From Raillietiella orientalis (Eukaryota), in assembly GCA_036172245.1 (NCBI GenBank), contig JAYWIR010000018.1, forward strand, positions 868,001 through 932,000: a stretch of 64,000 bases of DNA, read 5' to 3'. This document shows, piece by piece, positions 5,701-47,270 of this stretch. Positions within the stretch are counted from its first letter, which is position 1; every line of letters begins with the position of its first letter. The notes under the pieces were generated by a model. It saw only the letters and a list, made by a program, of their open reading frames with translations. It was not told where the DNA came from and made no database searches. The position numbers and the translations under genes are program-made.

Positions 5701-6890
5701 TGCGAAGGACTGGCTTCGGTCGTCGTGGCCAACGAGAGAAATTTGAGTCATCTTGGCCCTCAACTGCGCCAACTGGTTGCATTGGTACAACGAAACCCCT
5801 GGATTTCCCTCCTCCCTACGATCTGGGCTACTTAGTTGCAACAGTCCGTTTTCGCATGGGGTAAAATCGAAGGCACGAGCGAGGGGGCAGAGTGCACCTG
5901 CCTACGAAACAGTGATACATTCATCAGTCGTTGAGGGAGATCCTGGTAACACCAGGAATCTGCTTTGGGCGTCGTTACCCCCCCAGCCCCGGTGCCGCCC
6001 TCCCTACGGGAAGCAAGGGACAGCAATCTTCCGGAAAGGAGGAAAGTGACGTACACTATGGAAAATAGAAGAAAAGATCTAAATGCGTGAACAACTCGGG
6101 AGCTGACAGATGCTGCCAACCGCAGTTTCCCTCTGAAGGGACTACTACTCTGGGGGAGCTACTACGAATTCCTCCGGAGGAGGTACAGTGGTCCCCAGCG
6201 TGTTGGGACAGTGCTATCTTCCTTTTGAAATGGTAGGAGTCGGCGACCCACTGTTGCATAGAGGCCTCCCGTGTAACACCCGCCGGAACCATTGGACCGG
6301 GGGAGTGTAAGTCCGAACTGCGGCAGGTGAGCAGAGAGTCCCTCCCGCACCTGCTCATGGAATGTGTTGCCCTCCGTCCCATGTGGGAACGCTTCACCGC
6401 GTCCATGAGCATCCCTGAGGACAACCCCAGAGACGTTTTAAAGCGCCTATTCTCGCGCGACGCCCTCACGCCGGCCGCATCCCTAGCAGCACTTTGCTGC
6501 CTACGCGGGATCGTGGCTGCATGGAGCAGCAACGTCAGAGGAGATAGGACCAGGACGACAAGGGTGCTGCCCTCTTCATGAGGACATCGTCAAGATGGTC
6601 TCATCTGGGAGCCTTGAAACAGGAACTGGCCGGCATCCTTACAAGGAGGCAGAGGACACTCTTTAGCACACAGTGATCCCTTGCGGAACCCCTCCATTTT
6701 TTGACTGTATGCTTTTTGTTTTTTTCCTCTTCCCCTGTGCTGCCGAGGCGAAACCTGCTGGCTTGCGTGCCAGTTCCCGGCAGGTTCCTTCCATATATCC
6801 GTGTAAGGTGGCAGGACCAAGCGTTCTGCCACTGTATGTTAATTTTTTATATAAATAAACGGCCCGGCTCAACCGGGTGTCAAACCAATT
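2780..6890 (+). mobile_element. Near-complete but decayed L1/Tx1-like non-LTR retrotransposon
   Basis: ORF1-like ALQLYG..RCF (~2950-3250); APE-like ALQGTK (~3970) and SDH-like (~4590); RT-entry ASGQG..AFWELL (~4810-4880); FLGVSVG..WSSRLQKV..RAATWN..RVRLKDLCAPRKDGGLG (5283-5580); zinc finger PNCGR..ESLPHLLMEC (6310-6365); T-rich structured 3' UTR ending AATAAA-CCCGG-N5-CCGGGTG (6854-6880). Frameshifts and internal deletions throughout. Confidence 0.7.
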
Positions 6891-8479
6891 TCTTGATGAC
6901 TCCCCCGTTGGCCGTCTCCCACGCCCCGAGGGGTCCCTTCGCTAGAGTACACGCCAAGGCGAGAAGTTCACGGTCAGACCCCAATGGCTTCCCTCGTCTC
7001 TCTTGCACGATCTTCAAGAACGAAGGAGGGTGTGGAGTCTCAGTTCCTCGTCCGTACCAAAGGAGACAGAGGGAGCTGGACCTAGATCCCAGCCTCGCTC
7101 AAAGGGAGCCAGAACGCTGCTGCTAGTCCAGGGCGGAGTCTGAAGCGAGAAGACCAGAGCGTGCTGTTCAGGCGCAGGGAAGAGGGGAAGGAACCCTTTC
7201 TTCCTCCAATACAGGTGTACCTTTGAACAATAGTGCAGGTGGGCCGGGGCGTTGCAAAGGTGAGGGGTCCCTTCGGGGAGTTAGGAACAGACAGAGAACT
7301 TCAGGGATTCCAAAGCGGACTCTCTGGAATGCGAAGAGGCTGGAAGTCGCTGCCAGGAAAGGAAGGGGAAGTGCTCCGGGTGGACCGGAAGTGGCCGGTA
7401 CGCTCCAACCAGGCCACAGGGAAGAAAGTTCCAAAGCCCTGAGCTCTTTGGCAGACGCGGGAAGAGGGAGGGGGCGTAGGGGTCCAGAAAACACACGACT
7501 GCTCGTGATTACCCCATTCGCCCTCCATCGACGGAGTGCTCTCCGCGTCGCGAATCAAGGATGCTCCTGTCGCTCGCATGCAGATGGTGCAGATGCATCT
7601 CTCGAAGGGTGGCATTTGAAAATCCGACCATCCTGGGCCGTCATAAGCCGAAAATGCGAAGACAGGAGCAAAAATAAATAAATAAGTGGGGGAAACGGAA
7701 GACCATATGAAACGAAATCAGATGTTCCACAAGTCGAGAGAGAGACATGATTCATTATGTAGATTACATGCTCGGTTGAGATCGCTATCTCGCCCAAGCG
7801 ACGCGGAGACGTTGCTGAACCGCCGCGGATCGCGCGCGGTCCCGTTATTCTGAGCCCACAGTTCAAGGGGCTCGTCTTCGACGTAACATCCGTACCTCCC
7901 CCCCCCCCCGTACCCTCTCCCTCGGCGACAGGGATGTGTGGGTACAGATCCCCGCATTCGAAAAACGCGGAACGCTCTCAGCACCTCTTGCGGCGCAGTT
8001 CCTCCTTAAGTCCCCGGATCCGAAGGTCTCCTAGGGACACACCAGCAGGCCACGAGGCTGCCGTGCAAAACGCAGGCAGAAACGTAACGTATGCTATCTT
8101 CCAATTGCGCTCGCTGCTCGCTGCTCGCTGAAGATGGACTGCCCGAGGAGAAACCCGTGGGCTCAGCAAACCCCCCGTGCTGCCATTCTGTCGCCCCTGC
8201 GGGATGGCCAGGAAAGCCACCAACCCTCAAGATGGGAAATAAGCTACGAGATCACAGGAATAAAAGAAGCAATGGGGATGCTGGACGACGCGTCAACTGG
8301 TTGATGCTCCCACCCAGCGATCACCCTCCCCAAAGGACTTCTCTGCTGGGCGGACCTCCTTGGAATTCCGCTGGAAGAAGCCCAGATCCCCCCCGCAGCG
8401 TTCTTTGGCAGCTCATGCCCCTGAATGGGCAGGACTCGGCTCCGCGACTGCTGAACGGGACCCTCCCATGCAGCTCGCG

Positions 8480-9140
8480 CCTCCACCGCTGGACCAGCTG
8501 AAGTGCCACCCCCTATTGTGCCAGGTGCGAGGAAAGGAAAACCCTGCCGCACCTGCTTCCGGAGTGCGTTGCTCTTTGGCTTTTCTGGACACGTTTGACC
8601 GCGTCCCTGAACTTCCTAGAAGGCCACCCGAGGACCTCGCTCAGACGCCCCTTCACGCGTGGCGGGAAGTCGCCTGCCGCGACGATTGCAGTTTTTGCGC
8701 TGCGCCTGAGGGAGTTCGGCGGCTGAACCACGCTGCGGTGACAACGTAGACTGGAGCAACAGAAAAGCCACTACCTCCTTCGTCTTCCCGTTCATAAGAA
8801 TCTCGGCGAGATAGTCTCATCTGAGGCACAACCAGAAGGAACTTTCCGTCATCCTTGAGAGGCTGCAGAGGCCACCAGGGAGCGACCTGTGATCCCTTCC
8901 TCCCTTACTCTTCCCCCTCCCTTAAACACTTTAGAATTCTTTTGTTTGATTTTTATTTATTTTTTGTTTCTTTCCCTTCTCCCTAATTTTCTTGCGCGGA
9001 CCACTTCCGGCGACTGCTCCGAGCACAGCACTCCTCCTGAACACGCGCAAGTGGTGGCCTTTTCGAAGATGTCGACCCATTGTTGAAACTAGTGTCCTTT
9101 CACAGGACACGTCCCGGCGTGACCGGGTGTGAAAACAAGA
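8480..9140 (+). mobile_element. 3' end of the same L1/Tx1-like family
   Basis: Zinc-finger region homologous to 6310-6680 and 13000-13300; C-terminal FIRISAR*SHL..ELSVILER; T-rich UTR; terminal CCCGG-cgtga-CCGGGTGTGAAAAC at 9113-9136. Confidence 0.65.
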
Positions 9141-9499
9141 CACAACGGCTCAGCAGAAGGGTCATGGGGGGATGCGCAGCAGGAGGGTTCTGGGCGCGAG
9201 CTCTCCTGGAGACGCCGTGGTTGCGGGTCATTGGTGGTGATAGCAGACACTCCAGAGAGGTCCTCGAGGAGAGTGTAAAAGAGGGTCGCGTGCAAGCAGC
9301 CTTCGAGCACGGCCCTGCCGATCCCAAGTCCTCGGAAAGACAGAAATGTCCAGGAGCCGTTCATGACGATCTAAGTGGTGTGCCTTTTTGACACGGCGAG
9401 TAGAGGGATGGTGTTGGCGCCTCAGGCAGTGTCGGCTGTGCCGCGCTCTGTCTGACTCCGCGTCCCGAAGCATCCACAGTGAGGTAGGGAGGGAATAGG

Positions 9500-10879: not shown

Positions 10880-12153
10880 AAACTCCATCTTTACTTCTTT
10901 TTTTTACTTTCTGCCGGAGTGTTTGCCACCGTCTCCATCGAGATTTGCTCCGAGGATGCCTGCGGGCAAGCCCTTGGGCGCGTATGCCAGAACCCCCTTG
11001 CCACCCCCGCTTGCCGGAACCTGCTGCCGTCCCCTACGGAGGCGCAGCGACGGAAGGCAGCGACGGCCCTGTCGTGTTCCAACGGCACCCAGAGAGCGTA
11101 TGCGCGCGATCTCCAGGATCTCCAGGAACCATCTCTCCGGCAAGTGGGTCCTTGAGCCTAACGTCTCGCGGACCTTGGAGAGGACTCTGCTGTCCGTGGC
11201 AACCGCCAAGCACCTTGCGCGGTATCTGACGAGCGCTGCACTGGGCGCGTGGGCCACCCAACGCTTTAGGTTCTGCCCTTCACAATCGCCCTCTCGGGTG
11301 GTTCTGGTGAACCGCCCCGGTTTTAGCGTTGAGCAAGCCATAGCTCCTTACCCAGTTGGAGTAGGTCGAGCTCATGTCTGCTCGGAGGCCTCCAGTGATG
11401 GGCTTCACATGATGAGAACTATGACCTCCCGCCTCTTCCCGGACGAAACCAAGGGACTTCTAGAAGCACTCTGGCGCTTCGTTCCAGGGAAAAGCACACG
11501 AAGTCAGAGGAGCGAAGGGAACGTTCTCCGGAAGGATCTCCTCTGCATCGCCCACCCGTGTGGGATGAGCGATCAGTTATCTTCATCAGGAAGATGCTTT
11601 CCTCGCGGAAATCAGCGAAGTCTCGCTCTGTTGCGGTAGCATGGAGCGCTCCTTCCTGGGGGATACCCGTTCTCCCCGTCAGTAGCCCCGGCATGTTACC
11701 TTGAGCATCACCCGGATGTCTCTGCAGGGTGGCATCCTCCTGAGGCGCAGTTTCCACCCCTAGGGACGACGTTGACATCTCGGTTGACCATCCCAGATAA
11801 TGACCATCTCCTCCGATTTTAGGACAACTTCGGAGAATCTGCACCTGACTCAGAACAAACTGACGCAGGCGCACCGAGTCTTCGGTGGAAAGCTCTTCAG
11901 TGGCCTCGAGCAGAGACCAGCAAGTCCCAGTATCCTTTGCCTTTAGAGTGCCATCGACAAAAACGCGAGAAGTCACTTTCGTTGCTGGTATGCGGCGATT
12001 CCTTCTGACAGGGTTACCATGACAGTTGTGGACGAGCTTTTCGCTTGTAATCCCTATTTCCACAATTCCGACTGTCCCAATCTTTGGCACCTCGCGACTG
12101 AAGACAAGCGAACGAGCAAATGGTCCTCTTGGTGTCGCTGCGACCACTTTCAA
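10880..12153 (-). mobile_element. L1/Tx1-like ORF2 remnant (APE endonuclease plus internally deleted RT)
   Basis: ORF 11419-12153 starts MKVVAATPRG (APE N-terminal T.N.RG-like) and has LRQFVLSQ..IGGDG (GDFN-like); ORF 10904-11341 has REGD..NLKRW, GTRQGRRCL and VLAYA in RT order. Confidence 0.55.
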
Positions 12154-12269
12154 TCAAGTTGGCCGATCAGATAACACCTCGAGACCCTGGAGGCCCAGAG
12201 TCGGTGCACCTGTGGCACCCCCGAAAAAGACTCCTTGTGACCTGGCGGCCGTGTGGCTGCGGCCTCCGT

Positions 12270-13560
12270 GAGCGGCACCAAGCGTTTCGAATCCCCAAGC
12301 TGAGGATTGATGCCAGAGAAATGGGGGGCATCGTGGGTTCGAGTCACCCGCACAGGATAGCGCTGGTTGACCTGTAGGCTTCGGGTACGGCACTAGTGGA
12401 AGCCGGGTGGCTTTCCCGCTGATCGGCCGGGACTGGAAGTTGACCTTCCAGGGTCTTTACAGGAATCAAGGAGCCCTTCGAGTTGCGAAGAGGGGCTGTG
12501 GAGCTGGAGGACTGATACCTCTCCAGAGTGTGAAGAGGTGCGCTGCTCCCTTCGGGGAGCGATCCTCCAGAGGAAATTGGGAAGCGTCCCTTCGGGGTTC
12601 TCTTCGGAAGAGGGAGCAGAGATCGGTTCCCTTGCAGGTTCACTCCGGAGAATAAGTGAGAAACTGTCCCCACAAACCAGGGGATCTCTCCGGAGAGAAT
12701 AAGGAAGAGGTGATTCCCTTCGGGACTTATTCGCAAGCGTAAGAGAAACGAATGGACTCCTTCCTCCGGAGCCCTTCCTGGATCCATAGGGTGGTCTCTA
12801 TTCTGAACAGTTAGCACGCACCCGCAGGTGGCATGGACAGCACTGAAGAGCTTCGCGCCCCCCTTTCCCCCTCCAAGGAGATGGATGGCTCTTCAGCACT
12901 TGGCGAGCCAAGGAAAAGAAAATCCTAGGATACAAAAGCTGGAAGGGAGGCAGCGGAACAGAAAGGAACCCAAAAGGATTTCCGTCGTACTAGGCCAAGT
13001 GCTACAGGTGCGGGAAGGAGAAGAGCTCCTGCCACACCTGCTGTTGGACTGTGCTGCCCTCCAATCACTTTGGAATCGCCTGGCGACGAACCCTAGGAAC
13101 CCCGGTGGGCGACCCCAGGAACTTTTTGAAACGCCTCTTCACGCGTGGTGCCGCACCGCCTCCAGCCGCGTCTCCCGCAGCTTACGGCACGCTGTCCTGC
13201 GTCCTCTGCATCCTGTTCAGGATGCTGGCGCGTTCCGTCCGTGTAGCGCCCGGGTGGAGCCATCTCGAGGCGGTCTCCAGGAAGATCCGAGCGCAGTGGA
13301 TGGCGTCCCTGCTATTTCGGCCTCTTTTCCTGGCGTTTCAGGCTGCCGCGATCCCACGAAGGCGGAGGAAAGCTTCCCTTCCTCGGTTCCCCTCCCCCCT
13401 CCTTCCCGTGTATAATTCCACCTCCCCTGTTTTGTTGGTTTATTTTCTTCGTCTTCGTTTTCTCCTCCTTCGAGCTGCCGAAGCGGACCTCACCGGCCTG
13501 CGCACCGCTCTTCGGCAGGTTCATTGCGCGTGGTAGAACCGACGGTTCGACCACACCAAT
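12270..13560 (+). mobile_element. L1/Tx1-like 3' half
   Basis: 12270-12850 is a diverged direct copy of 55680-56290; EELLPHLLLDCAAL zinc finger ~13020; structured 3' UTR 13475-13555. Confidence 0.65.
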
Positions 13561-17740: not shown

Positions 17741-18266
17741 AGACCCAAAGAGCCACGCTCACTGAATACAGCACTGGGGAGGAATCGAGGAACAGCAGCG
17801 ACGGTCGAAGGATAGAGAAATGGGCGTTGGGACGGATCAGTGCCCCACGACCGTGAACGGTCGTTCCCGAGGGACCCACGTCGGGCAGGGGAGGGATGAG
17901 AGGAAGGACCGTGCGTGCGTTCACCGCTTCCCGGTTACACCACCCGCGGGCTCTGCCCTTCGTGGCCCACGTCCCGGATCGGACCACTGAGTCGGCTTCC
18001 GCGCGAGGGCGAAGGCGACCGCGAACGGCTACCCGGCAGGTGACGACGGCTGCATCCTTCCTCCATGGGGTCCATCGCCGTTGGCTCGCACGTGGCAGAA
18101 AACGTGCCGGCGAGGAAGCGACCGGCAGGCGTCTGGACAAGTGAGGGGCATCGGAGGCCTGGTCTATCTGGGAAGCAGGCGTGCCCCTGCGACGGCTCGC
18201 GCATCCGTACCCTCCGCAGTCTTCCGCATCCGAGGAACGTGTGCGGTAGGGTTCCCATTGTCCTGC
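17741..18266 (+). repeat. Left arm of long inverted repeat (partner 31464-31980)
   Basis: 17792-18239 is the reverse complement of 31491-31938 with 2 mismatches by manual comparison; diverged homology continues on both sides. Confidence 0.95.
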
Positions 18267-19400: not shown

Positions 19401-20520
19401 TCCTTTAAAGGACCAATGGAAGCTGCATGGAATGATCCTGTATGCTACATCACCCTTCGACGCATTTACACGCGCAATGCACGCCCTACGAATCGACCCG
19501 AAGTGCCTCATCTCCTACGGGGCGCGAAACTCCTCCTCCGCCGTCATCATGGCAGACAACCCAGCACCAGGCTCCTTGTACGTTGACAGGAGTTCGGCTC
19601 GTCCTTTCCTCTTCCCTCGATCGTCGTCTCGGGGCCAAAGGGTGAACGGCTGCGGGACGCTCTTACAAAAAGAACGGGTGAGATGAGGGGAGGAGAGCAA
19701 GGGTGCGTTCCCCATCCTCCTGCAACGGAGGGCTCTTGCAATCTCGGATTGGCCGTCAGGAGCGAAGATCGGGTGATGCAAAGAAGCAGATGCAGGAACG
19801 GTGATCCGAGGAGGAGCTGCATGAAGCCGGCGCCTCTGAGGGTGCGTGCTGTCGGGAATGCCACTGGATCGCTGCGGCCGGAGCTCTTCCTCGCTGGTTC
19901 CTCAGGTTAGTCGAAACAGGAGAATCATCGGGAAGAATCACACAGCATCGCAGTCTACTCAGGGACAGCAACCAAAGGATCAAAGGGTGGGCGGAGCTCA
20001 TTCGCTCCCGTGGCTATGCAAGCCGTTGAGGTCGCCTGAAAGAGACCGCTGGAAGGAACGTTCAAGTGACCTGCGGGTGATTCTGCGCAGGAAGATCAGG
20101 AAAGTGAAGGGAGGGGGGAGGATTAGAGGCGAAGGCGGAGGTGGAGCAACCTGCAATCCGATCGCGCCAAACAGTTTCCGATCCTGGTTCTTGGAAAAAA
20201 AAAAACGAAGTTGACACCACTCCGATAACTGCTTCCAGGAAGAAGAAGGCGCGGGTGAGTGCCCAGGATGGGCGCTTTTGATCCTTGCTGAATCGCAGGT
20301 GTCGGAACATCCGCAGCTCGGCCCCGTCCCAAGGGGGACAGACACAGAGAAGGTGAGAGGTCGAGGGGCAGATTTTCGGGGAAAAACTGAGAACACGACT
20401 CTGAGCAACTGAGGAGGGGCAGAGAGGGAAAAAAATGCTTGCCCACCCGGCGTGCTCCTTGGAAGGCGCTCTCGCAACAGCGAAATCAGACGGATCTCAT
20501 ATCCAGAGGCTTTGGCTATT

Positions 20521-21000
20521 TCTTGTTGTTTCCCACCCGGGTGCGCCGGGGTGTTTATTACTAAACTATCCGGGAACAGGGTTCCTGGACAAAGGACACA
20601 GAAAAACGAATGGAGGGATCCCCGACACACAGGTCGGTAAACCGAAAGTCCGGAACGGGAGTGAGAAGACCACAAATACACGTATAAAAAATAGAAATAA
20701 AGATATGAGGTTTTGGCTATGGTGGCCTTCCGGTGCGCGCGAAAAACACAGCCACTCTTGCAGGAACCTGGAAGAGACAGTTTCAGGAAAAGCTGATTGG
20801 AGGATTTATCCAGGTAGGCATTTTCGGGTTTTTGCAGATGGAAGGCAGCTGATGGAGTCAAGTGGAGGCGAAGCTGGGAAGCCAAGGGAGTTGGTCAGCC
20901 ACGTCAAAATTCCGTTCGCACAGAGTGACCCACTTGGGAACCGACCCGCCTCAAGCATGGCACTGCGTGCCTCAACGGGCGGGGCTCAGCGGCCCCAAAT
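20521..21000 (-). mobile_element. Retroelement 3' end
   Basis: T-rich UTR with AATAAA-cac-CCCGG-cgcac-CCGGGTGGGAAACAACAAGA on the minus strand (20521-20560). Confidence 0.45.
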
Positions 21001-21290
21001 GGAGTACCACGCCCTTTGTGGGCAGCTGGCGGAGGAGTTGACCGCCATCTGAGCAGCCCGGCTTCTTGGCGCTGCTATAATGGATCCAATAAAAAAAAGG
21101 GACGGGCTGAACGCTGAACAGGGGCCGACCCACCTCTGCTTGTACAGATTGCGCCACTGGAAACCGACCCGGCTCAAGTGCGGCAAAATGCAACGAGGTT
21201 CAGATGGTGAATGACTCCGTTTTGAGTGGCTCATCCTGCACCGGGAGCGCAGGACGCAGGCTCAGCATAGACCTGGGGTGCTTAGGAACC

Positions 21291-24150
21291 TTGTCGTTGC
21301 CACCCGGATATGCCGGTACGTTTATTCAAATTCATTACACAGTCATTACAAAACGTGGTACAAGGCCCCACTAACTTCCAACACAACGCTGGGCCTGCCG
21401 GGACGCCGACCAGACCAGAGTGACTCTCCTCGGGAGTGGAAGGAGATGGGGAAAAAACAAAAACAAAAATAAAACAATAAGAAAAAAAAGGATAGAATTT
21501 GGAGGGTCGGGAAGTGATAGGAACCTTGTCGAGGGAGCATCAAGTGGTCCTTATGCGGACCGAAGACATCGACGCAGATTTTTGCTACCGATCTTAATCT
21601 GAATGCAGTAGATGTAGACGTTCATCCGGCTCACATACAGGTGCTGCAAGATGGATTTGCGTAGAGCAGATACAAGAACTCCTGAGGATCATCCCACAGG
21701 CGCCATTAGCTCCGTAGACCCGCTCCCGGATCGAAACAGAGCCTATAGGTCATCCCCAGTCTTCCTGTTAGTCCGCAGGCAATGGAATTGCTTTTTGGAA
21801 TAACGGAAGATCTTATGGGCCAAGAATTCCAGCCTCCAGCTTCCCACGTTTCTCTTCTGTCTCTGAGGAATGATACTCGAAATGGAGCGGGTGGAACGAG
21901 GAATTCCTGGGTCGGCGCACGAAGCTGGTGGAGGAGCGCGCCCAAAATAGATGTCCCGAGAGTTCCCAACTGCGTTGGCGGAAGGATCAAATGGAGGCAT
22001 CTTAACATGGGACTATTTGGGCTGACCCCACTCGATGGGAGGGTGAGGAAGGAGATGCCTCTCAGGGCCCTACAGGGACTGAGAAGTCTGGTGCCTCTGG
22101 CGAAAATGCAGAGCTCTCATATTGGAGGATAGGATGCTTCGTCCCAGAACATACCCAGGAGGCTCAGCAGCACGCGGAGATGGTCGAGATCAGCGGAACA
22201 CTTGTGGGACGCTCTCTCCTGCGTGCAGGGGTGGCATTAGGGTAGGTTGGGATAGGTTTCTCCAGTCCGCATCGGCCCCGTGCCAGCACCGTTTCCATGC
22301 CTGCGAAGGTGCTCGGCGTGAAAGCATACCGTCAGGCGCGGGCAGAAGCAACAGTTTCAGGTGGCAGGCGATCGATGCAAAGCCAGAATGGGACATCTGC
22401 TCGGCGCCACGGGAGCGAAGCAGGAAATTGATGCGAGAGACGATCCAGTAGGGAGCGAAAGCTACTTCCGCCGCATAGATGTGGCGACTGCGAGTCCGGA
22501 ACGGAGGGGGAAAGGCAAACATCGCAACTCTTTCACCGCTGTTTCGCACCCCCGCGGGTGCAGAATTTTCCCTCGAGGACGAAAAGCCCTTCTCCAAGAG
22601 CAGTAGGGAAGGCGCCGGGATTCTTACCAGCGCCTTCCCTACCGCTCTCTCCAGAGACGATGCGAGAAGGTTGCCTAAATCGGGATGACATTCCTGGTTC
22701 TCTTGAACGGAATCCAGCCAGAGCGGTGTGATTTGCAAAGGAAGAGGAGGACGCGAAGATCCCCCCGGTAGAATTTGAAAGCGAGGATAGGAGGGAAGCT
22801 TTAGGTACGGGAACACTTCGTGGTGGATGGTTTCTAGGGATTCACTAGATCGTTCTGAAGATGGAAAAGGCAGCGCGTATGGGAAGGGGCGCGTAGTCCC
22901 AGTGCTGTCCATCCGAAAGCACACAGCCATTCCTGGAGTGTCCCTGCCTGCGTTTCTCGCTTGCCCCAAAGTACGACCGATGACCAGAGCATTCTCCATC
23001 ATCTTCGCTGACTGGCTGTTTCCTCCATTCGGTCTCTCACTCTAGACTGTGTTCTTCCGGCTGGCTCCTCCATTGGGCTCCGTGGAGCTTACTAGGGGTG
23101 CATGTTGGACCGCGTGTGTGTTGCATCACACTATTCCCTCTTTATGCTCTCCGTGCGTTTTCTGAAGATCCCTAGTGGGCTGACTTCGTCGTTCTCCAGA
23201 TTCGTGATTCCGAAAGGTCCTGCGACCATCTTTCTGACGGACGCTGGTGCTCCCTTCCCGGCGAAGAGGAGAGCCCGTTTTCTGCGATCCCTTCCTTCTC
23301 CATGTTTCCTCTGGCGCCTTGGAGGAGAACCCATACGGACTGGCAACTTTCACTCTAATTCCCTCCTCGCCATCCCGGAGCTGCCACCATCTTCATATTC
23401 CTGCAGTTTTTAATTTTTTATATTTTATTTTATTTTTGTTGGGGAGGGGGGAGAAGAGGAGGTTTCCTGAGGTTCTCGGCTGCCATTTTTCTCGCTTGGC
23501 CTTCTTCATCCGGGATACCAGCTCGTCCTGCTTCTCGATGACCGTGCTTTCGTTCCCGATGCAGTCGTGTCTCCCGGAACACGGTTGGGGATCTCCCACG
23601 CCTCGCGCAGTTCCTGCACGCACGGTCAATGTCATCCCTCGTGGGCCTTTCCCGTGAAGGTGACAAACCGAGTCGCTCCGCGCGAATCAACCCGCAGTGG
23701 GGAAAACCCTTGGTAGGATCTTGCTCACTTATCCTTTCGTTCGCAGTAAGTCCGCGAGGTCGTCACTTCTGGTGGGGACCCTGGGATGTCTTTCTGAAAG
23801 AGCTGAGCATCCAGAGAATGCAGGCAGGAATCGCCCGGAAGGAAAAGCAGTTTGATTCTTTGCGCTCCTCACCATCTGCTTCCTCCTCACCTGCATGTTT
23901 AGTCAGTCCTTTTGTCCCACGCGTGTCACCTCATGAGACTGAAACATAAAAAAAAAAACCTTTAAAGAAACCTCCATTTGCATCTGCATCGATCAACACC
24001 AGTTGGTCGATGTTCCCCAGCAGGAGATTGGATCCACCCATGGGTCCGACAGAGATTGCAGCCATATTGGATGCTCGGAGCAACCCATGAGGCCCCTCAT
24101 TTCTCAAGGTATGGTCACGGGATCCCACATTTTCCATTATTTTTTTCACT
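21291..24150 (-). mobile_element. Decayed L1/Tx1-like ORF2 with 3' end
   Basis: ORF 22190-23002 has DLGNLLASSL..VGKAL.RI..EKGFSSSRENS and AEVAF..INFLL (RT domains 1-3); DIYFG (YLG-like) ~21945; structured UTR 21340-21440; terminal motif 21291-21330. Confidence 0.55.
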
Positions 24151-27200: not shown

Positions 27201-27849
27201 TCCTTTTTTTCGTTTGCTTTCAAACGACAACAAGCACCTTTCAAAGAGAAGAATCGAAAATATGGCCCCCCTTCGAACGCGTGCGTGGCGCTGCCGCAAC
27301 CATCGCAAGGATCCCATCCTCTCGATTACGGGGCCGTTCGGTCTCCGCGTCCCAAAACTGCGCTAAGGACGGGTCGAGAACACCTTGGAGATCCCTCTGG
27401 AGAATAGGAAACGTCACTTTCACCAGGAACGCCTTGGTTTCAGGCAGTCAACCTTCTCACCCCGGGATGCCGGCCCATTTGCCCGAAATAAATTAATAAT
27501 CATCGCCGAGAAAGTCCGAGAAAACGCTCGATGAGGAGGAGGAGGAGAAAGCGGCTTACTTCACCATTTCCACACCCCACCGCCTGAGGGGTGCTGCCCT
27601 CAGCTGGCAACTCTGCGTCTAAGCTGTCGAAGATCGGTCCCCTGCTTCTTTCCCATCCGCTTCCCCACGTCGCGGGAGCAGGAGGGTCCGTCCCATTTTG
27701 GGTGTTCGGTTCCCGGTGACGAAACCTCGACGCCGACTCTCTGCCTCCGGCGCCGAGGTGTATGCGGCGTCTCCGAACCCGCGCCTCCGTGTCCTTTCCG
27801 TCCAAGGTCGTTGGTAGGACCACGTTGCCAGAAGCCTCTACGCCTGTCG

Positions 27850-28560: not shown

Positions 28561-30100
28561 TTCAGAGTAGCATCCCCGACTGTCCGTCCGTGAAGGACCG
28601 GAGAATCTTCATTTGGCTGGATGTCCGTCTTACGACTTGCTCTTCGCGTGCCCGCTCAACGGTGCGAACTTTCTCGGTATCCTCCCGGACGTGCAGTCGC
28701 CCTTGTCCTGGTCTCAGGAAGCAGCTGGGACTTGTTCCTCGATCTCCTCCTGGGGAGGGGTGAGCAGATCGGGAGGCGGTGTGAGCTGCTTGAGGGATGC
28801 TGAGGTGAGAGAAGGTGCCGTCATTCTCGTTCGGCTTACCAGTGAGTGCCAGGAATCCCTCGGCACGCTCCTCATGCAAGACCACGTACTTCTGAAGCCC
28901 GCTCAACCTTCCAGCTTTTCCGTCAGCGAATGCCCAATCTCCTTGAGGTAAAACGCGAAGCTATGCGGAATGTGCTGGTCTGGACGAAAGAAAGCTTTCA
29001 GTGAAAGCAGATTGAGCTGCCTGAGGTCCACGAATCGCTCTTCGGAGTGCTCTCCAGGAATATCGATCCTGAACGGCTTGCCTGCCTAGCGTTTGCCTTC
29101 CTGGGATTCTTCGAATGCAGAAGTTTCTGTTTGGCTCATTTGGAACGTCTTTGGCCTCTCCCCACTTCCTTGGGTTCACAGATGAGCAGGGATCTTCCTG
29201 CACAGCTCCTCCTCGGACGACCTGAGCTGCCCTTGCGGTTCCTCTGGTAACCTGGTAATCCTAGCGAGGTCGCCTCCGTATGCGACAGATCGGATCCTGT
29301 GTCCGAAACGGTGGTTTCATTGCCCGTAGGGAGTGGTTCCAACTCCACGCCGCGAGCTCTGAGGGCGCCCTCGACGGCTCCTCATGGCTTTCACGGAAGA
29401 AGCGTCCTATCTTATGGGATTCGCCACTGCTGTTCCAATGCGATCTTCGATTTCTCAGGGTCTCTTGCATCTCCTGAAGGGAGACCACGCCGAAAACATC
29501 GTCTGGATCTACAGAGACTGTACAAGCCTACTCCGCATAGATATGGATCTTCGAGTCTCCCTCTATTTCCATGCAGAGCCACTTGCAGGACGAAGATCTA
29601 TTACAGCAGCTCGCTGAATCGGTAAAATCTCTTTTGCTCTAGGCAGATCATGCTGCTTTCCATTATGCGTTCCGGTAGCTCACGCGACAGGCTCTTCTCG
29701 TACAACTGCAAAGTGCCTGTCGATGCAAGCACAGTCTCCTATGGATCAATATCCATGGGGGATTGCCTCCAGCCGTCTACTCCACCCCGATCCAGTTCAT
29801 GTGAGGGGGTGGAAACAAGAGTTGAGTCTTCCTACCAGGATGGGGTCTTTAATGCCTTCCGACGAATATTAAAAACCCCGTGGATAGTAGCCCCGCTTCC
29901 TCTGATCATCATCCTTCATCTGGCATAAGAGATGCCATTGATTTCTGGTAAGGAATCTTCTGCATCCCGGAGGATCATTTTCACCTTCTCGTTTCCCTTT
30001 CTGAGATCCAGTGCAGATAGTAGTTCTTCCTCACTCTTGATAAGTCCGTTTCAGAGATGATCCGGCTTCGAGCACCTCGGCAAAGTGCCGTCCCGCTTCA
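28560..30100 (-). mobile_element. R2/NeSL-like reverse transcriptase remnant
   Basis: GISYAR..IHGVFNI..PSW*EDSTLV..DGWRQ, LYEKSLSREL, EQKRF, DDVFGVVS, VAYGGDLARI..PQGQL and SVNPRKW occur in the canonical R2 RT order. Confidence 0.65.
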
Positions 30101-30799: not shown

Positions 30800-31320
30800 T
30801 TCCGCGATCAGCGTGAGGCAGCCAGGGTTTTGGCTACGGCATCGCCCCACCGGATGGACGACCACGCAATACGCCAACGGGCGAGAGTGATCCTCCTGAC
30901 CCGCCGTCGCACCGCTTGCCGTTCTCAGGCACCACCTGGCACCACAATCTTAGACACGAGATATGCTATCCACTTCGTCGCCCGATTCACGAGGATGGCA
31001 ACGAGGTGGCCCTACCTGAAGGACAATATGCAGCACGAGCTTGCCGGCATCCTCGACAGGATGCCGAGGACCGCCTCCAGCAGGATGCGATTCCATCCTG
31101 CACCCCACTCCCCCAAAGTTTATTTATTTATTCTTATTCTTGTTTCCTTTCCTTTTTCGTTTGCCCCCTCCCCTCTGCTGTGGAGGACCTCACCGGTCGG
31201 CGAACTGGTAACTCGGCAGGCTCCCGGTAAAACGCGCGTGGTTGGACACCAGTCCGACACAAATTTTTGTAGATGTTTATTTTTATTTAAATAAATGTCC
31301 CAGCTACCCTGGTGAGAACG
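30800..31320 (+). mobile_element. L1/Tx1-like 3' end
   Basis: FTRMATRWPYL..QHELAGILDR matches the C-terminus at ~6575-6660; structured UTR 31175-31260; AATAAA-tgt-CCCAG-ctacc-CTGGTGAGAAC. Confidence 0.65.
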
Positions 31321-31463
31321 CAGACACGAGATGTCGCGCCTTCAGTGCCCAGGAAACCTCAGCGAATCGGATCACCTTTTGCTCTTTGAGGAAAAGCGCT
31401 GATCTGTCAGCTCACGTTCGGGAATCACCCACCTCTCGCCTTGGCAGGGTAAGCTAATCTCAG

Positions 31464-31980
31464 GCGGGATAGTAGGAACCCTGCCACACGCGTTCCTCGG
31501 ATGCGGAAGACTGCGGAGGGTACGGATGCGCGAGCCGTCGCAGGGGCACGCCTGCTTCCCAGATAGACCAGGCCTCCGATGCCCCTCACTTGTCCAGACG
31601 CCTGCCGGTCGCTTCCTCGCCGGCACGTTTTCTGCCACGTGCGAGCCAACGGCGATGGACCCCATGGAGGAAGGATGCAGCCGTCGTCACCTGCCGGGTA
31701 GCCGTTCGCGGTCGCCTTCGCCCTCGCGCGGAAGCCGACTCAGTGGTCCGATCCGGGACGTGGGCCACGAAGGGCAGAGCCCGCGGGTGGTGTAACCGGG
31801 AAGCGGTGAACGCACGCACGGTCCTTCCCCTCATCCCTCCCCTGCCCGACGTGGGTCCCTCGGGAACGACCGTTCACGGTCGTGGGGCACTGATCCGTCC
31901 CAACGCCCATTTCTCTATCCGTCGACCGTCGCTGCTGTGAGCGTGGGCCATGTCCCCAGCGAGCGTGACCCTTTTGGTCT
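31464..31980 (-). repeat. Right arm of long inverted repeat (partner 17741-18266)
   Basis: Reverse complement of the left arm; matching ORF translations in the track (17896-18144 and 31586-31834). Confidence 0.95.
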
Positions 31981-32480: not shown

Positions 32481-33000
32481 TTGGGTTGACACCCGGTAGC
32501 TCTGGGGCCTTTATCTATATAAAAAATAAACGTACAGGTCAGTGGCCGGACGCTCCTACCACGTTATAAATATAATAAAAGGAACCTGCCGTGTGCCGGC
32601 GTGCAGGCCGGCGAGATTCGCCTCGGCAGTAGAGGGGGAGGGGAGGGGGACTAACAAAAAAAGAAAATAAAACAAGAAATATGTACAAAAGAAATTGGGA
32701 GAGTTCGGGAAGGGATCACCGGGTGCTGGAGGGTGCCTTCTGCATCCTTGTAAGGATGACGGGAAGTTCCTGTTTCAAGACTCCAGATGGAGCCGTCTTG
32801 ATGCTGTCCTCATGAAGAGGACAGTAAAATACATGGTGCCCCTGTCGTCCTGACCTCCTCTGACGTTACTCCATGCAGCCACGATCCCGCCGCGTGGGAG
32901 GCAAAGTGCTGCTAGGGATGCGGCCGGCTTGATGGCATCGCGCTGGCAGTGGCGCTTCAGGAGGTCTCTGGGGTTGCCCTCGGGGATCCGCTGGGACGCT
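32481..33000 (-). mobile_element. L1/Tx1-like 3' end, close relative of 6410-6890
   Basis: Clear reverse-complement nucleotide homology to 6410-6890 (e.g. CGGCCGCATCCCTAGCAGCACTTTGC), including all three UTR modules. Confidence 0.75.
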
Positions 33001-33099
33001 GCAAAGGGTTGGCGCTCATGAAACCACTCGTCCGAGCTCCTCCCCTCTCCAGACCGAGCCCGGCCACACTCCTGGTTTCGTCCAAGAAGCCACGTGTGG

Positions 33100-34470
33100 G
33101 TTTCTTCGTTGCTGGCGAGCGTCGCGGCTTCCCCTCAGAGCCCGGAACCTCACCCGTCGGAGCAACCGAGGAGCGAGTCGAGTTCCCTCGAAACGACTAG
33201 AAGAAAGGACTTGAAGAGAAAGGATCGGAACCTCGCCTCACCTGGGATGGAAATCGGAGAGGGAACAGAGAGAGTAACGGGAGAGCTGACAAGTGGGATG
33301 AAGAAGCGGCAGGGAACACGATTCCCAGGAGAAGGGACCGAATGGGAGGGAAGCGGGGCGCTGCTGTCTCCGGTCCCGTGAGGGCGAGCTCGAGGGCGCG
33401 TCTTCGCAGAGCTTCGTGGAGGCCGTTTAGACGCCTGCCAGACGCCAGCGCCATCCACGGGACTCGTTCCGAACCGTGACGGTGATGAGCCGCTTCCCTC
33501 TTTTGCTTCCTGATTGGTCCACAGGGAGGCTGGATGTGGCCTGTATGACCACGCGTCGTCAAAGCACCACTCGTGCCTTACACAAATGCGGCGAGTACAG
33601 CATTGATTACCTCGCCTGCAATGATCAGCTGATCCCGAGGAGCGCTGGAGCGCGAGCGCCGGGAATGCATGCGAGCCTCCCCTGGAATCACCAGTCCCGA
33701 AAAACGGGAGACAGGCAGACATGCCGATCGTCCTCGACGGCGTTGGCTGGGGGAAGCTCCCCCTTTTTGCGTCGTTCCGAGCCAGGCAGGAGGAGGAGGA
33801 GCAGCAGCAGCATCGCGACTTTTTATCAGCGTGTCGATGAAGAGTCCCGTAAAAACGTCACCGCCGCCCCTGCCGCCGCGACTTCCCGAAATAGCATCGC
33901 GACGCGGAGCGCTCCTGCGTGGGAGCATCCGGTCCTTTTGCGCAGGAGGCCGGAGCTGCTCCCCCCCCCCACGCGAGGTGGATCCCCGCTTTTACGACGA
34001 CTGCCCCAGACGGATGGATCCTTCGGCGCGCCACATTCCCCGTCCTTCGCCTCGGAGGAGCTCCTTCGGCCAAGCGACCGCCTGGATGCCGCCGCACCCG
34101 TGGAGGATGCGACCTGGCGACTCCTGCCCGCCTCCCTCACCTCCTTCCCAGCGGAGTCTACGGCAGGCTCCGCCCGCGCGCAGGGACACAACAGGAAACG
34201 GGAGCACAAGAAACACAGTGTGGTTCGCGCGCGGGGATTCTCCGGGCAACACCCGCGGGCTGTGAGATTCGTCCATCGAATGAGGGGTGCTCGCCGCTCC
34301 CCGGAAGTCAACTGGGCAAATTGGCCGGCTCCAAATTCCCCGGCGTCCGCGCGACTCGCCCCCCGTGAGCACCGACGCCGCGCTAGGAGCGTCGTGGGTT
34401 TCGTGGACTCTGCGAAAGCGCGCTCCCTCGGGATCGGGGAGCCATCCCCTTCGGAGTCCCCGTACCCCAG
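33100..34470 (-). mobile_element. Non-LTR RT remnant, homologous to 45600-47270
   Basis: 34090-34430 aligns by eye with 46840-47265 (GCGCGCGGGGATTCTCC; GTGAGCA.CGACGCCGC); GLFIDTL..AW..QKGG and GEVINAVL RT-like motifs. Confidence 0.4.
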
Positions 34471-34480
34471 TTCGTGCCCA

Positions 34481-34539
34481 AATCCGCAAACTGCCATTCC
34501 CGCGCGCCCGGGGTGTGCGGGAATGGCAGTTTGCGGATT
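34481..34539. repeat. 59-bp palindrome/hairpin
   Basis: Perfect 23-bp arms AATCCGCAAACTGCCATTCCCGC / GCGGGAATGGCAGTTTGCGGATT around a 13-nt spacer that also pairs via G-T. Confidence 0.95.
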
Positions 34540-34586: not shown

Positions 34587-37500
34587 CCAAGTTCCTGTTC
34601 TAAGATTTCCGGATGGAGCCATCTTGACACTGTCCTCACGAAGAAGACAGCAAAATTGATGGCGTCCCTGTCGTCCTGGTCTCCTCTGGCGTTGCCGCTG
34701 GGTGTTCCAAGGGTCGCGGCAAAGCGTCCCCAAAGGAGTCAGAGGGCAGCACAGTCCACTAGAAGGTGAGGGAAGGATTCCCGCTCCCCGCACCTTGCAG
34801 TATGGATCCACACCTCCCCTTGTCCAACGATGTGCGGGCGTTGCACGGTAGTCCCCCAGTGTAGCAGCAGCAGCTCCAACTCCAACTTTGAGGGGAGGTT
34901 GCGGGTGTTCATGAGCACCAGGGGCCACTGCAGGTCTTCCTCTGGGATACCCAGTAGCACGCAAAAGTCCACGAGGTCGAGCAATCGGAGTCGCAGCGTC
35001 GCTGAGCTGGCCTGTTGTCCTCTCTCCCGTCCAGTCCTTTTCTCCTTCCGGAGATTTCCACAGTAGCCTCCCATCTAGATCTCACTGGTGCAGAGTTCAC
35101 GGCCGTGGGCTTGAATCCCGACGGCGAACCCGCTCGCGACGGAGTCCCTTGTCTTTGGCGCGCGATGCCGGACCCTTTGGGTTCTCGTCCCGGGCAAGCG
35201 GGGAGGGGTTGCGCACCTCCCGTAGCCGGGCGCTGCGGCGGCGCCATGATTTTCTCTTTCCGTGGTCGCCTACCCCACCATGATTTCGATCCTGTAGGAC
35301 ATGTCCTCAGAACGAATCCCTCCCCTGGGACGAGGAAGCGTGGCTGACGCAAATCCAAATTTCTAAAGCATGTCCAGATCAAAAATTTCGCAGGGATGTT
35401 TTTGGGGGAGGAGCCGTTCCGCCTCCCCCAGGAGTCCCGTGCAGCGGATGGAGGAAGAGGTCTCGAATGGGGATGGGGTGAAAGGTGAGAAGTTTCCTTC
35501 CATCCCAGAATATTACTTCATGGAAACGCAGAGCCTAGTTTCCCTGGAACACGCCTGCTTCTGAATCTGGCGCACCACCTGCTTGGCGCCCGAGGTGCCT
35601 GAACGCTTCCTGGAGAGAAGGCGTCCCGTTGCAGGGGGAGACCTTCTCGCTATCCCGGGTTCGCAGCGAGAGAAGAGAGGGAAAAAAGGGAGGAGTTCCT
35701 GCTGCGCGCGCCGTGCAACCCATCTGGAACGGGTAGGAACAAAGCGGAGGTCACCGGAATTTCTCGCAGTAGCCACGCGCGGCCTGAGCACCGACGGGAA
35801 GGGTCAGTCCACCTCCCCACCCCTTTCCTCTACCCATTCCTGCTGCTGCGAACGAACAGCATCTACCCTCGCCTCTTCTCGAGCTGCAAGGACCGGGGGG
35901 AAGAGAGGGAGGTGGAGGAGTCGACGAGGCATTCCCGAAGCAGGGCTGCTCCCCCCCTTCTTCTCCTGCCTTTTGCAGCTCCGAGAATCTCTTGGACAGG
36001 AGATTCCCGGAGGTCCATCATCTTCCGCCGAAACGGACCGGAGAAGCGAGACCCCCTCCACCCTCACGCCGCCGCTTGCCTTGAAGAGCCCGCGACATTC
36101 TGAAGGTGGCGCCGCGCACTCTGTGCAACTCCGACTCCGGGGAACGACCCTTCCCAAGGGAGTCAAGTCGACCCTGGAGTGGGACGGCTGCGGACACAGA
36201 GGGGAGAGCGCTCGCATCCCTCGTCCGCCCTTGGAGGAATGGGGGAGGAGGAGAAAGGAGGAGCTAATAGAAGGAAGAACCCTATCAAGCTGTGTGATCC
36301 CGAATAAGAGGGTCCCTCCCTGATTCTCCTCTCACCTCGCTCCCTTCCCTCTTGGAGGAGGAGTCGCTGAGCTCGTACGAAACCGCGTGCGGGTCGCTCG
36401 GTTTCAACCACGGGGCGTCTCCAAGTCACGGTCTCTTCTATCGTCCCCTGGATAGACCCCAGTTCTCTCTCCGGATGGATGGTGGTGCAGAGAAGGCTGC
36501 ACAAGAGTCTCTTGTCCCTCCTCCTGAAGGGATTCCTCCGAAAGGCAGCTCTACGAGTCGAGGGCGAGCGTTCGAAGCCGAAGGCGAGCCGCGGTCACCC
36601 GCCCATTCCGCCATAGACAACGGAGGAATGTCGCTGGACGCAATCACGGCCTGGCGGGTGGCTTTCCCGGCCCCTAGCCGCGAGGGTTGAGACGGACGAG
36701 GCCTACTCCATCCAGGGAGCCCCACCTGACCACTGCATCTCGCAACACTCCTCACCAGCAGCAGAAGAGCCGCCAGATGCCGTCCGGCGCGTGCACTCAC
36801 TGGCGAACTTCACATCCGAGAGGACTGCGATGTGAGCGCAGCCCGCGGTGACACGGGGGAGCTCCCTTTTTGTGCGTATACACAATGTACACGCACAAAG
36901 TAGTACAGTACCTGCAAAGCGGAAGTCTCCAGCTTCCAGTCTTTCCTTCCCCTATGGACTCCTTTCCTCCCATCCCAGCTTCCCGCTAGTCGATAACTCG
37001 CGTCCCTCCTTCCAAAATGGCCATTGGGTTCCCTTCCCAAACCACCCCAGGAACTGATCGAGACCAACACACGCATCAGCAGAAGGGCGTCCCTTTCCAG
37101 AACCAGCACGTGTCCTGGCAGCAGGGAGAGCTCGTCACTCCCCCCGAAAGGCACCATCCGAGCCGCGCACGCAGTTCCGCTACCCATGGACGGCCTTGAC
37201 CTCCTTCGGGCACGCGCGCACCTATCCTTGTGTGCCCAGCAGGGACGCAGCACACGCAGCAGGGACGCTGGAAGCTGTCATTCTTCGCCATCGTTCCTCT
37301 CACCACGCTCATCCCCGCGCGGCGAGAAGGCACTAGGATGTTTCGCTGAAGTGCGCGGGCACCCGGAGGCGCGCCCACGCTCCGCCTCCATTGGAAAGAG
37401 ATCACCCACTCCAGACACCGGCGACCACCTAATGTCCAAAACCGACAGAGGTGCATCTTTCATCCCCTCTCCTCCCCTCCCCACCTTCCGCCTTCCACCC

Positions 37501-45599: not shown

Positions 45600-47270
45600 G
45601 GAAGCCTCATCTCGAGTGGGATTGGGGACAGGGCGGATGTGTGCGCGTGGGAAAATGAAAGCGCTCAGAAGAGAGTTGGTGGCGCGGCTGCTGCACGTCG
45701 TGCGCCCCGGGCCGTTCCATCGATGCGATGGCAGACGAGGCGCCACGCCAGCACGGGGTTGCTGCCTTCGGGTGTCCCTCGGTCGCGACCGTCGGCAGGG
45801 GGGGAGGGGATGGTTGCCACTTTGTTGCTCCTGCGTCGCTGCGGACGCGTTCTGGGGACCAGGGGCAGACATGCGGAGGCGGGTCAGGGAACGGCCTACG
45901 TGCCGAGGTAAGGCGGGATTCGAAGGCCAGGCTTTCCGCAGCGTTTCCAGACGAGGGTGTGCCTCCTTTGTTCGAAGAGTCGAGGAGAGGGTTCGTTGGG
46001 GCGCGCGAAACCGCGCCATGGACGGACGACCGCGCCCCGCCAAGTGCGACCGCACGTTCGCACCTGCCGGTTCTGCGAAGGCTCCGGAAGCGAGTGCCAG
46101 GCGGGTCCGTTCCACGCGACCCGCGATGCAGCTCCCTTGCGAACGGGAGTTCCGTCGGGAAACGGAGGAAAATTCCCGGCATATTCCTGCCTCTTTCTCC
46201 CCGTGAACTTCCGCCGCCGAGGCCTTCAAGATGCGTTTGCACTGTCGTCGGCTTTTCCGCTGAAGAACGCGGACAAAGGTGCCCTGATGAGGGACAGCAG
46301 CCGGACGCGGGTCGAGCGGAGATCCTTCCGTTCTTCTGCAGTCCCTCTTTTTCCACTCTTCCTGCGATTGGTTTAGAAGGCCTCCTCTCCCGGTCGGCGA
46401 CCCTTGCGAACTCACATCCCGGGGGTTTCGTTTCCGGTGTCCTCCGTTCGGTTCTATCAATTCGGCTCTTCCCTCACCGACTCTTCGCCGCCTCCCGGGT
46501 CAGCAGGCATCTTCCCAGGGATCCGACTGCTGCTGTACCTTCCTGGAGGTCTCTGCTCGGCATGCGCGGGTCGCTAGGAGCGAACTGGAGTCCAGGACCT
46601 CGTTGCCAGTTTCTTCTCGCATCCTCCGACCTGCCACCTTCCTGCACTGGAGGTGTGCGCTCGCCAGAGTGGAAGACGTCCACCACGACCGTCGTCCCGG
46701 TCGTCCCCTCGAGCTGCTCGCCCGGTTCGGCTGGTGCGATGAGTTCCAGGAATGCCCTGGTGGGCGGTGCGGCGGTTTCTGGTGTTCCTTCTCTATCGGA
46801 GTCACCCCGCAACCGCGATCATCGTCTGGCTGTTGACGAACCCGTGGGGGATGCAGCCTGGCGTCACCTGTGCGCCTCCCGCACCTTCTTCCCAGGCCGC
46901 CAGCAGCGTCTCCGGCGGGCACCGCCCGAGCGCAGGAGTAGGACCTGAAACGTGCGCGTAGGAACGCACCGCGGTTTGCGCGCGGGGATTCTCCAGGCAC
47001 CACCCGCGAGCCAGGGGAGTCCCCTGTCGGATTCGGAGTGCTTGCCGATCCCCAAGAGTCCGCCGGTCGTAGAAAAGGAGAGAAGGTTAGCACTCCCCTT
47101 GACAAGGGTAGAAAAGTAGAAAAAGAGTCCGCTGGGAGATCGTCCAACCCGAAATTCCCTGCGTCGGCAGCCAGGGCGCCCTCCCGCAGGCTCGACTCAC
47201 CCTGTGAGCATCGACGCCGCTCTGGACGCGTGCTGGGTTTGGTGAGCTCCGCGATAGGGCGCTGGGAGGA
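45600..47270 (-). mobile_element. Non-LTR RT remnant, homologous to 33100-34470
   Basis: Nucleotide homology as above; VQEGGRSEDARRNWQR (K.G..D..N.RP-like) and VPHQG. Confidence 0.4.

Follow-up and report, generated by a model that had tools for sequence, protein, structure and literature searches.

A probable modular folded 3′ tail shared by decayed copies of a LINE-like element in the Raillietiella orientalis genome

A 64,000-nucleotide stretch of the Raillietiella orientalis genome (contig JAYWIR010000018.1, positions 868,001 to 932,000, forward strand), hereafter called the window, contains at positions 6740 to 6886 a segment that was originally predicted, from its letters alone, to be a conserved RNA structure. 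That segment is the folded tail of the 3′ untranslated region (UTR) of an element resembling a long interspersed nuclear element (LINE), of which at least eight decayed copies are present in the window. The copies were retroposed, are truncated at their 5′ ends, and share one 3′ end, and the nested helices of the tail retain pairing by compensatory changes. We consider that the segment is probably the structured 3′ tail of a LINE-like family without long terminal repeats (non-LTR) that was copied from a specific 3′ end rather than from a long poly(A) tract. All of the copies compared come from this one 64-kb window and comprise four well-aligned copies and three to four diverged ones, each named below by a window coordinate.

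The copy at 6740 served as the type copy. As originally proposed, the segment is part of a 3′ UTR, as it lies downstream of a TGA stop codon (6674 to 6676) that is common to copies 6740, 32538, and 8501 and is mutated in copy 31175. The tail of the open reading frame (ORF) that precedes the stop is also readable in three further copies (32538, 31175, and 8501), as well as in a metagenome protein, P0003. The 3′ UTR is about 210 nt long, of which about 150 nt form a tail of four nested modules, M1 to M4, spaced from the ORF stop by a pyrimidine-rich stretch, and a comparable pyrimidine tract is found upstream of M1 in all eight copies. The features of the type copy are as follows.

6572 to 6676, plus strand: tail of the ORF, last 34 codons (LFMRTSSRWSHLGALKQELAGILTRRQRTLFSTQ), with the stop TGA at 6674 to 6676
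6677 to 6739, plus strand: first part of the 3′ UTR, including a T/C-rich tract (6696 to 6739)
6740 to 6787, plus strand: M1, with helix A (6740 to 6748) paired to A′ (6775 to 6783) and an inner hairpin H (6757 to 6762 paired to 6769 to 6774), from folding and pair counts
6808 to 6832, plus strand: M2 hairpin, GTGGCAGGAC / GTTCTGCCAC, 10 bp with a 5-nt loop
6838 to 6860, plus strand: M3, an AU-rich hairpin in which the AATAAA hexamer (6854 to 6859) forms the 3′ arm
6862 to 6878, plus strand: M4, the terminal hairpin, CCCGG N5 CCGGG

The closing helix of M1 consists of CUGCCG/CGGCAG and a three-pair extension, with a 5′ internal loop of 12 nt. Beyond M4, the type copy continues with UG and a short A-rich end that runs to 6885 (..GTGTCAAAC). 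The AATAAA hexamer is present in five of the eight copies, and M4 has at least 4 bp in seven of the eight. In copy 8501, a GC hairpin, GTGTCCT/AGGACAC, occupies the position of M3.

The five copies on which the original prediction was based are all present where it had placed them, with a mean column identity of 64% in a five-copy alignment, and the four best copies have a per-column identity of 71%. A nucleotide profile made from the two closest copies and searched against the window with nhmmer matched the shared 3′ regions at E values of 2e-34 to 8e-13, and it added a full 3′ end at 8501 to 9137 (plus strand) and a tail-less fragment at 34588 to 34829 (minus strand). Scanning the window for the terminal motif added two further 3′ ends, near 20529 and 27454, both on the minus strand. 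Moreover, a covariance model trained on the four best copies and run over the whole window without filters recovered seven copies at E values of at most 0.1, namely, its four seeds, copy 21340 (8e-4), copy 20530 (1.3e-3), and copy 8501 (0.07). A borderline match of the same model at 28796 to 28955 (E = 0.95) was rejected, as it has no T-rich tract, AATAAA, or terminal hairpin. Because of the E values of the covariance model and nhmmer, we conclude that the family is more than a chance grouping. Its members other than the type copy are as follows.

8501 to 9137, plus strand: copy 8501, a diverged lineage with a GC-rich M3, an intact terminal hairpin, and no AATAAA
13011 to 13610, plus strand: copy 13475, ORF tail and UTR, with a 9-bp helix A and a degraded terminal hairpin
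20520 to 20706, minus strand: copy 20530, an insertion of 187 nt that comprises the UTR only and belongs to a diverged subfamily (covariance model E = 1.3e-3)
21297 to 21517, minus strand: copy 21340, a 221-nt UTR-only insertion bounded by a target-site duplication
27454 to 27545 (5′ limit approximate), minus strand: copy 27454, short and diverged, ending in GGGCCGGCATCCCGGGGTGAGAA and missed by the covariance model
30963 to 31321, plus strand: copy 31175, a 359-nt 5′-truncated insertion bounded by a target-site duplication
32484 to 33010, minus strand: copy 32538, which has the ORF tail and the complete UTR and aligns with the type copy over 539 columns at 73% identity
34588 to 34854, minus strand: an ORF-tail-only fragment, followed by no UTR

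Copies 20530, 21340, and 27454 consist of the 3′ UTR alone (about 90 to 221 nt), and clear target-site duplications were found for two of them. Either the 5′ truncation of these UTR-only copies is extreme, or they represent a nonautonomous derivative of the element that consists of the tail only. The sequence CGGACTTTC..CGG is common to copies 20530 and 27454 and is missing from the main family.

Target-site duplications delimit three of the insertions. Copy 21340 is flanked by an exact 14-bp duplication, CGACAAGGTTCCTA, at 21518 to 21531 and 21283 to 21296 (2 matches, 0 expected), and copy 31175 is flanked by an exact 11-bp duplication, AGACACGAGAT, at 30952 to 30962 and 31322 to 31332 (2 matches, 0.01 expected). 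For copy 20530, a 14-bp duplication with one mismatch, ATAGCCAAA[A/G]CCTC, lies at 20707 to 20720 and 20506 to 20519. Candidate duplications for copies 8501, 13475, and 32538 (12 nt, one mismatch, far upstream) were at chance level, with about 0.4 expected, and were rejected. The 3′ ends mapped by the duplications (..GGTGGCAA, ..GGTGAGAACGC, and ..GGTGGGAAACAACAAGAA) carry no long poly(A) and fall 4 to 14 nt beyond M4. Relative to the AATAAA hexamer, the mapped ends lie 24, 26, and 34 nt downstream, and a CA or AA is found 21 to 22 nt after the hexamer in five copies. The detectable 5′ limits, expressed as type-copy positions, vary among 6263, 6335, 6340, 6388, about 6590, and the UTR alone. 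The duplicated target sites, the differing 5′ truncations, and the 3′ end that the copies share bear out the earlier claim of a multicopy retroposed element. Because the insertions end 4 to 14 nt past M4 without a long poly(A), reverse transcription started at a defined 3′ end. We conclude that the anatomy of the insertions is that of a non-LTR retrotransposon that primes at a specific 3′ tail and not at a long poly(A).

Retention of RNA structure was measured on a MAFFT alignment of four copies that was made blind to structure and that provided 36 pairs and 141 pair-by-copy cells. In that alignment, 81.6% of the 141 cells pair, compared to 33 to 45% when the partners are slid by one to three columns. 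Changes on both sides of a pair occur in 9 of the 36 pairs, compared to 1 to 3 in the slid registers and 4.2 ± 1.5 after shuffling, and none of 500 shuffles reached 9. In a seven-copy alignment fitted to the model, both-side changes occur in 19 of 36 pairs, compared to 4 to 7 in slid registers. Conservation is also higher in paired than in unpaired columns (0.685 versus 0.512 in mean pairwise identity), and loops and linkers are the least conserved of all (0.27 to 0.47). Moreover, RNAalifold independently recovers A, H, and M4, and M1 folded in isolation forms A/A′ and the inner hairpin in five of six copies.

The compensatory changes can be followed helix by helix. The core of helix A, CTGCCG/CGGCAG, is exact in copies 6740, 13475, and 32538, and its predicted extension at 13.5 kb (CTGCCGAAG/CTTCGGCAG) was confirmed by folding; within this extension, copy 13475 has replaced G.C with A.U. 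Copy 31175 reads CTGCTG, with one G.U, and copy 21340 reads CTCCCG, with one C.C mismatch. Position 3 of the helix is G.C in the main family and C.G in copy 20530, with the C.C of copy 21340 as an intermediate. In copy 8501, an unrelated 8-bp closing helix stands in place of helix A. The inner hairpin keeps its pairing as its sequence changes, in the forms noted earlier (CTGGC/GCCAG, GCCGGC/GCCGGC, and ACCGGT/ACTGGT), and three of its six pairs in the four-copy alignment change on both sides, with U.A against C.G in one place and C.G against U.A in another. For M2, described earlier as a GTGG..CCAC hairpin with a varied interior, the description holds for copies 6740 (10 bp), 13475 (5 + 5 bp with an A.G mismatch), and 31175 (6 + 3 bp) and is weaker for copies 32538 and 21340. 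In M4, G.C alternates with A.U, and A.C is found as an intermediate. As compensatory change in the nested helices exceeds both the slid and the shuffled controls, a structure-conserved, cis-acting RNA is the best reading of the tail.

A simpler explanation is that no structure has been selected and that the apparent conservation reflects the shared descent of decaying copies, with the apparent helices and double changes arising because the sequence is GC-rich, the copies are few, and the structure was derived from the very copies used to judge it. Several results weigh against a structured tail in this way. The sample of four well-aligned and three to four diverged copies from one window is small, the per-column identity of the four best is 71%, and sequences that are related can outscore shuffles even where no structure exists. 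The RNAalifold covariation term is 0.06, and M2 and M3 were not recovered on the MAFFT alignment. The z-scores of the whole tails are mostly unremarkable (−2.09, −0.51, −3.14, −0.77, +1.19, and −0.10, of which only two of six are below −2). G.U cells equal A.C cells at seven each, so the wobbles do not tell which strand folds, and 12 of the 36 pairs in the four-copy alignment depart by unpaired cells only. Copy 21340 has neither the A nor the H pairing, and the seven-copy alignment is biased toward structure because the diverged copies were aligned by the model itself. However, the both-side-change measure was rarely fooled in trials (0 to 1%) and gave 9 against 4.2 ± 1.5 for shuffled and 1 to 3 for slid partners; stems are clearly more conserved than loops and linkers; and the diverged copies 8501 and 20530 keep hairpins of different sequence at M2, M3, and M4, as well as a closing helix at M1. 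We regard descent without selected structure as unlikely and retain the structured tail as the probable explanation of the segment.

The original prediction further arranged M1 as a pseudoknot, in the order A-B-hairpin-A′-B′, with GGACCT or GAATCT (B) pairing with AGGTTC (B′). In the type copy, B is found at 6752 to 6756, in the 5′ internal loop of M1, and B′ is found at 6782 to 6787, where 2 nt are shared with A′. The part of the claim that B and B′ can pair was upheld (21 of 24 cells in four copies), but the pseudoknot itself was not, as covariation is missing. None of the six B/B′ pairs changes on both sides, a register slid by +1 still pairs in 75% of cells, and the shuffle control was uninformative. 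Substitutions in B are single transitions that happen to produce G.U pairs, the only change in B′ (copy 31175) breaks its pair, and B/B′ is absent from copies 21340 and 20530. A′ and B′ overlap by 2 nt (AG), which in copy 8501 grows to 3 nt (AAG), such that loop 3 has zero or negative length, and the linker between A and B is 6 nt, or 1 nt in copy 8501. By general helix geometry, the full helices A/A′ and B/B′ should not be able to coexist with such an overlap and linker. We conclude that B and B′, although complementary, represent at most an alternative pairing, not a pseudoknot coexisting with helix A.

One observation on M1 bears on whether an alternative pairing might itself have been selected. 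Copy 8501 contains an 8-bp helix, CTTGCGCG/CGCGCAAG, and a 7-bp helix, ACCACTT/AAGTGGT, in the same A-B..A′-B′ order, with unrelated sequences and again with shared nucleotides. A 7 + 7 arrangement in this order occurred in 154 of 20,000 dinucleotide shuffles, and the figure becomes about 0.06 once the eight copies are allowed for. However, when aligned by sequence, the 8501 A′ and B′ segments may match the other copies' linker and M2 arm. The type copy also has a nested alternative of 10 bp, AACCUGCUGG/CCGGCAGGUU, that lies within 1.7 kcal/mol of the optimum and is the centroid of the whole-tail fold. M1 could then be a true pseudoknot or two-state switch in the A-B-hairpin-A′-B′ order that is recognized by protein and has no ribozyme activity. 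Pairing of B/B′ in most cells, recurrence of the order in copy 8501, and the near-optimal alternative speak for it, but the lack of both-side changes, the equally permissive neighboring register, the transitions in B and the broken pair in copy 31175, the overlap and short linker, the two copies without B/B′, the possible realignment of the 8501 segments, and the corrected shuffle figure all speak against it, and we judge it quite improbable. Likewise, it is distinctly doubtful that the overlapping order seen in two lineages (CUGCCG..AACCU..CGGCAGGUU and CUUGCGCG.ACCACUU..CGCGCAAGUGGU) represents a selected two-state switch or an unusual pseudoknot. Were it a switch, the conformer with A/A′ and the inner hairpin would be the form recognized by the reverse transcriptase, and the B-B′ conformer would serve another step, e.g., translation, 3′ processing, or template release. 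No comparable two-state switch in a LINE tail was found in the published work consulted on LINE tails.

The order of the helices in M1 also recalls P1-P2-P3-P1′-P2′ of hepatitis delta virus (HDV)-like ribozymes, which occur in several non-LTR retrotransposons. The likeness ends with the segment order. Models of HDV-like ribozymes gave no match up to E = 10 on 6660 to 6900 or 8880 to 9150, and permissive scans of the type copy and copy 8501 against Rfam returned unrelated families only, the best at 16 bits compared to thresholds of 35 to 60, such that no family came close to threshold on either copy. Nothing between A′ and B′ is fit to be P4 or a J4/2 with its catalytic C, no P1.1 is visible, A′ and B′ overlap, and a self-cleaving site inside the 3′ UTR would sever the tail from the ORF. 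The resemblance drawn earlier to HDV-like P1/P2/P3 was thus not substantiated, and an HDV-like self-cleaving activity of M1 is extremely improbable. At gathering threshold, the sole Rfam match in the whole window was U6atac-like, at 47064 to 47117, away from the tail. Therefore, HDV-like ribozymes and those LINE 3′ elements that are curated in Rfam are excluded. The search against Rfam that had been proposed with the prediction found no matching family, and the suggestion that the structure is "possibly undescribed" holds for Rfam only. A tRNA-like origin of the tail was rejected, as no tRNA was found in the window, and so was an origin in tandem repeats, as just two short arrays are present, one of them within copy 21340's T-rich tract and the other at a different place.

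The coding part of the element is poorly preserved, and all copies look truncated or decayed. Domain scans of translated ORF pieces (87 + 64 + 48) found no reverse transcriptase or endonuclease Pfam domain in the 199 translated ORFs of the window, and no YxDD motif was found. Searches of PDB with phmmer and word-index protein searches returned no relatives. When 1.84 billion representative proteins were scanned with HMMER, three matches were obtained, of which the only true relative was P0003, an 87-amino-acid metagenome fragment corresponding to the C-terminal part; a Toxocara protein and a repeat protein were spurious, one having no aligned stretch and the other being low in complexity. A CxxC..H..C motif is readable in the 6300s and the 13000s, and a GGLG motif is readable at about 5580; both may be linked to ORF2 of the L1/Tx1 type, the lineage suggested in the original prediction. 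A protein language-model search provided a weak lead (score 0.92), with RVT_1 in 21% of cluster members. It counts against assignment to the LINEs that the label is based on the anatomy of the insertions, a CCHC-like motif, and this weak lead, with no reverse transcriptase or endonuclease domain found.

Relatives were also sought beyond the window. A protein-pattern scan of metagenomes matched 116 stretches, none of which was confirmed as a copy. Metagenomes were scanned again with a degenerate DNA pattern for the codons of ELAGIL..R.Q, which matches four copies in the window, and this returned 28 loci, all chance matches as judged by nhmmer, the best (E = 0.006) matching in the pattern only. 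A UTR pattern, CTGCCGARGCGRA..CGGCAGGYTC, returned 38 loci in prokaryote genomes and one viral locus, all of them chance matches and none with an upstream T-rich tract or a downstream AATAAA.

How the tail would work is suggested by analogy with retrotransposons that recognize their own RNA. We infer that the element's protein may bind the tail and that 3′ end formation may take place just past M4. In such a scheme, the protein would bind the folded tail, with M4 and the adjacent GGUG foremost, and M1 and M2 would provide further protein contacts or a scaffold. The AAUAAA in M3, 24 to 34 nt before the mapped ends, would set the end of the transcript just past M4, and target-primed reverse transcription (TPRT) would begin at the last few A-rich bases of the tail.

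Alternatively, the modules might serve 3′-end formation or stability of the mRNA and not template recognition, in which case M3 would display AAUAAA, M4 would mark the cleavage site or set its spacing, and the U-rich tract would act with M1 and M2 to stabilize the transcript. This agrees with the presence of AATAAA in five of the eight copies, with ends mapped 24, 26, and 34 nt past the hexamer, and with the CA or AA at 21 to 22 nt in five copies, and the short A-rich ends may be what is left of poly(A). However, copy 8501 has a GC-hairpin M3 and an M4 yet no AATAAA, and the insertions stop at M4 without a long poly(A), which requires initiation at a defined 3′ end. Moreover, roles in 3′-end formation and as template are compatible with each other. 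We consider a function confined to the transcript rather unlikely and favor a tail from which copying starts.

Several features of the window stand apart from the tail. The window has a GC content of 59%, is eukaryotic in look, and contains no tRNA genes that could be found. An inverted duplicate of 475 bp (17792 to 18266 and 31464 to 31938, 98% identity) is far younger than the LINE-like copies, with one arm immediately downstream of copy 31175. A near-perfect inverted repeat with 23-nt arms (AATCCGCAAACTGCCATTCCCGC .. GCGGGAATGGCAGTTTGCGGATT, read on the minus strand) occupies 34481 to 34539, about 50 bp beyond the break in the ORF-tail fragment at 34588 to 34854, and may be the end of another inserted element. 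The U6atac-like match (44.3 bits) spans the whole 126-position model in 54 bases and lies inside a repeat at 46823 to 47263 that shares 72 to 76% with 34079 to 34424; it may be a repeat-borne fragment of a small nuclear RNA and not a gene. A dispersed repeat pair at 12255 to 12799 and 55666 to 56217 (69 to 73% identity) is unrelated to the LINE-like tail. Between 40000 and 53000, where the GC content is 64 to 71%, long open frames occur in all six frames with no Pfam family in any, and the two longest translations resemble noise rich in Arg, Pro, Ser, and Gly. Finally, a 75-amino-acid ORF at 11947 to 12171 (plus strand) approaches RoxA-like_Cyt-c (26.3 bits against a Pfam cutoff of 26.7; E = 5.6e-6), probably by chance in GC-rich sequence.

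Recognition of a structured 3′ end is established for other non-LTR elements. The ORF2 proteins of stringent LINEs bind their own 3′ stem-loop, as reported in PMC4176376, and the tails of the L2-clade elements of eel and zebrafish covered there resemble the present one in having a terminal stem-loop, 5′ truncation, target-site duplications, and no long poly(A). The present tail probably belongs to this stringent type, although recognition of its own tail by ORF2 would apply to the present element by analogy only. In contrast to the L2-clade tails, the present tail is about 150 nt long, has four modules instead of one stem-loop, includes AAUAAA, and has no Rfam match. No partner short interspersed nuclear element (SINE) that shares the tail was seen in the window. 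The R2 protein binds a pseudoknotted element in its 3′ UTR to start TPRT, as reported in PMC12222951, and the present tail is likewise a multihelix 3′ UTR RNA, R2's being bound by the reverse transcriptase for TPRT. R2 differs in that it is site specific in the ribosomal DNA whereas the present copies are dispersed with unrelated target duplications, and in that its element is pseudoknotted whereas a pseudoknot is unsupported here and no Rfam match was found. Conserved structured 3′ ends are also reported, in Ohshima 2012 (PMC3472496), for L1-clade lineages of monocots and a green alga; if the L1/Tx1 guess is true, the present tail would be the same phenomenon, in which an L1-type element depends on a particular structured 3′ end and not on poly(A), the two being likened by description and not by sequence.

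The finding of a structured tail leaves the existing understanding of how such elements work unchanged. If the reading is true, the family would be a well-delimited, multimodule LINE that selects its template via a structured 3′ tail, with insertion ends mapped by target-site duplications, in a GC-rich eukaryote with elements that are hardly represented in protein or RNA libraries. Which RNAs a reverse transcriptase will copy is defined by such tails, and this bears on SINE/LINE partnerships and on engineered RNA-templated insertion.

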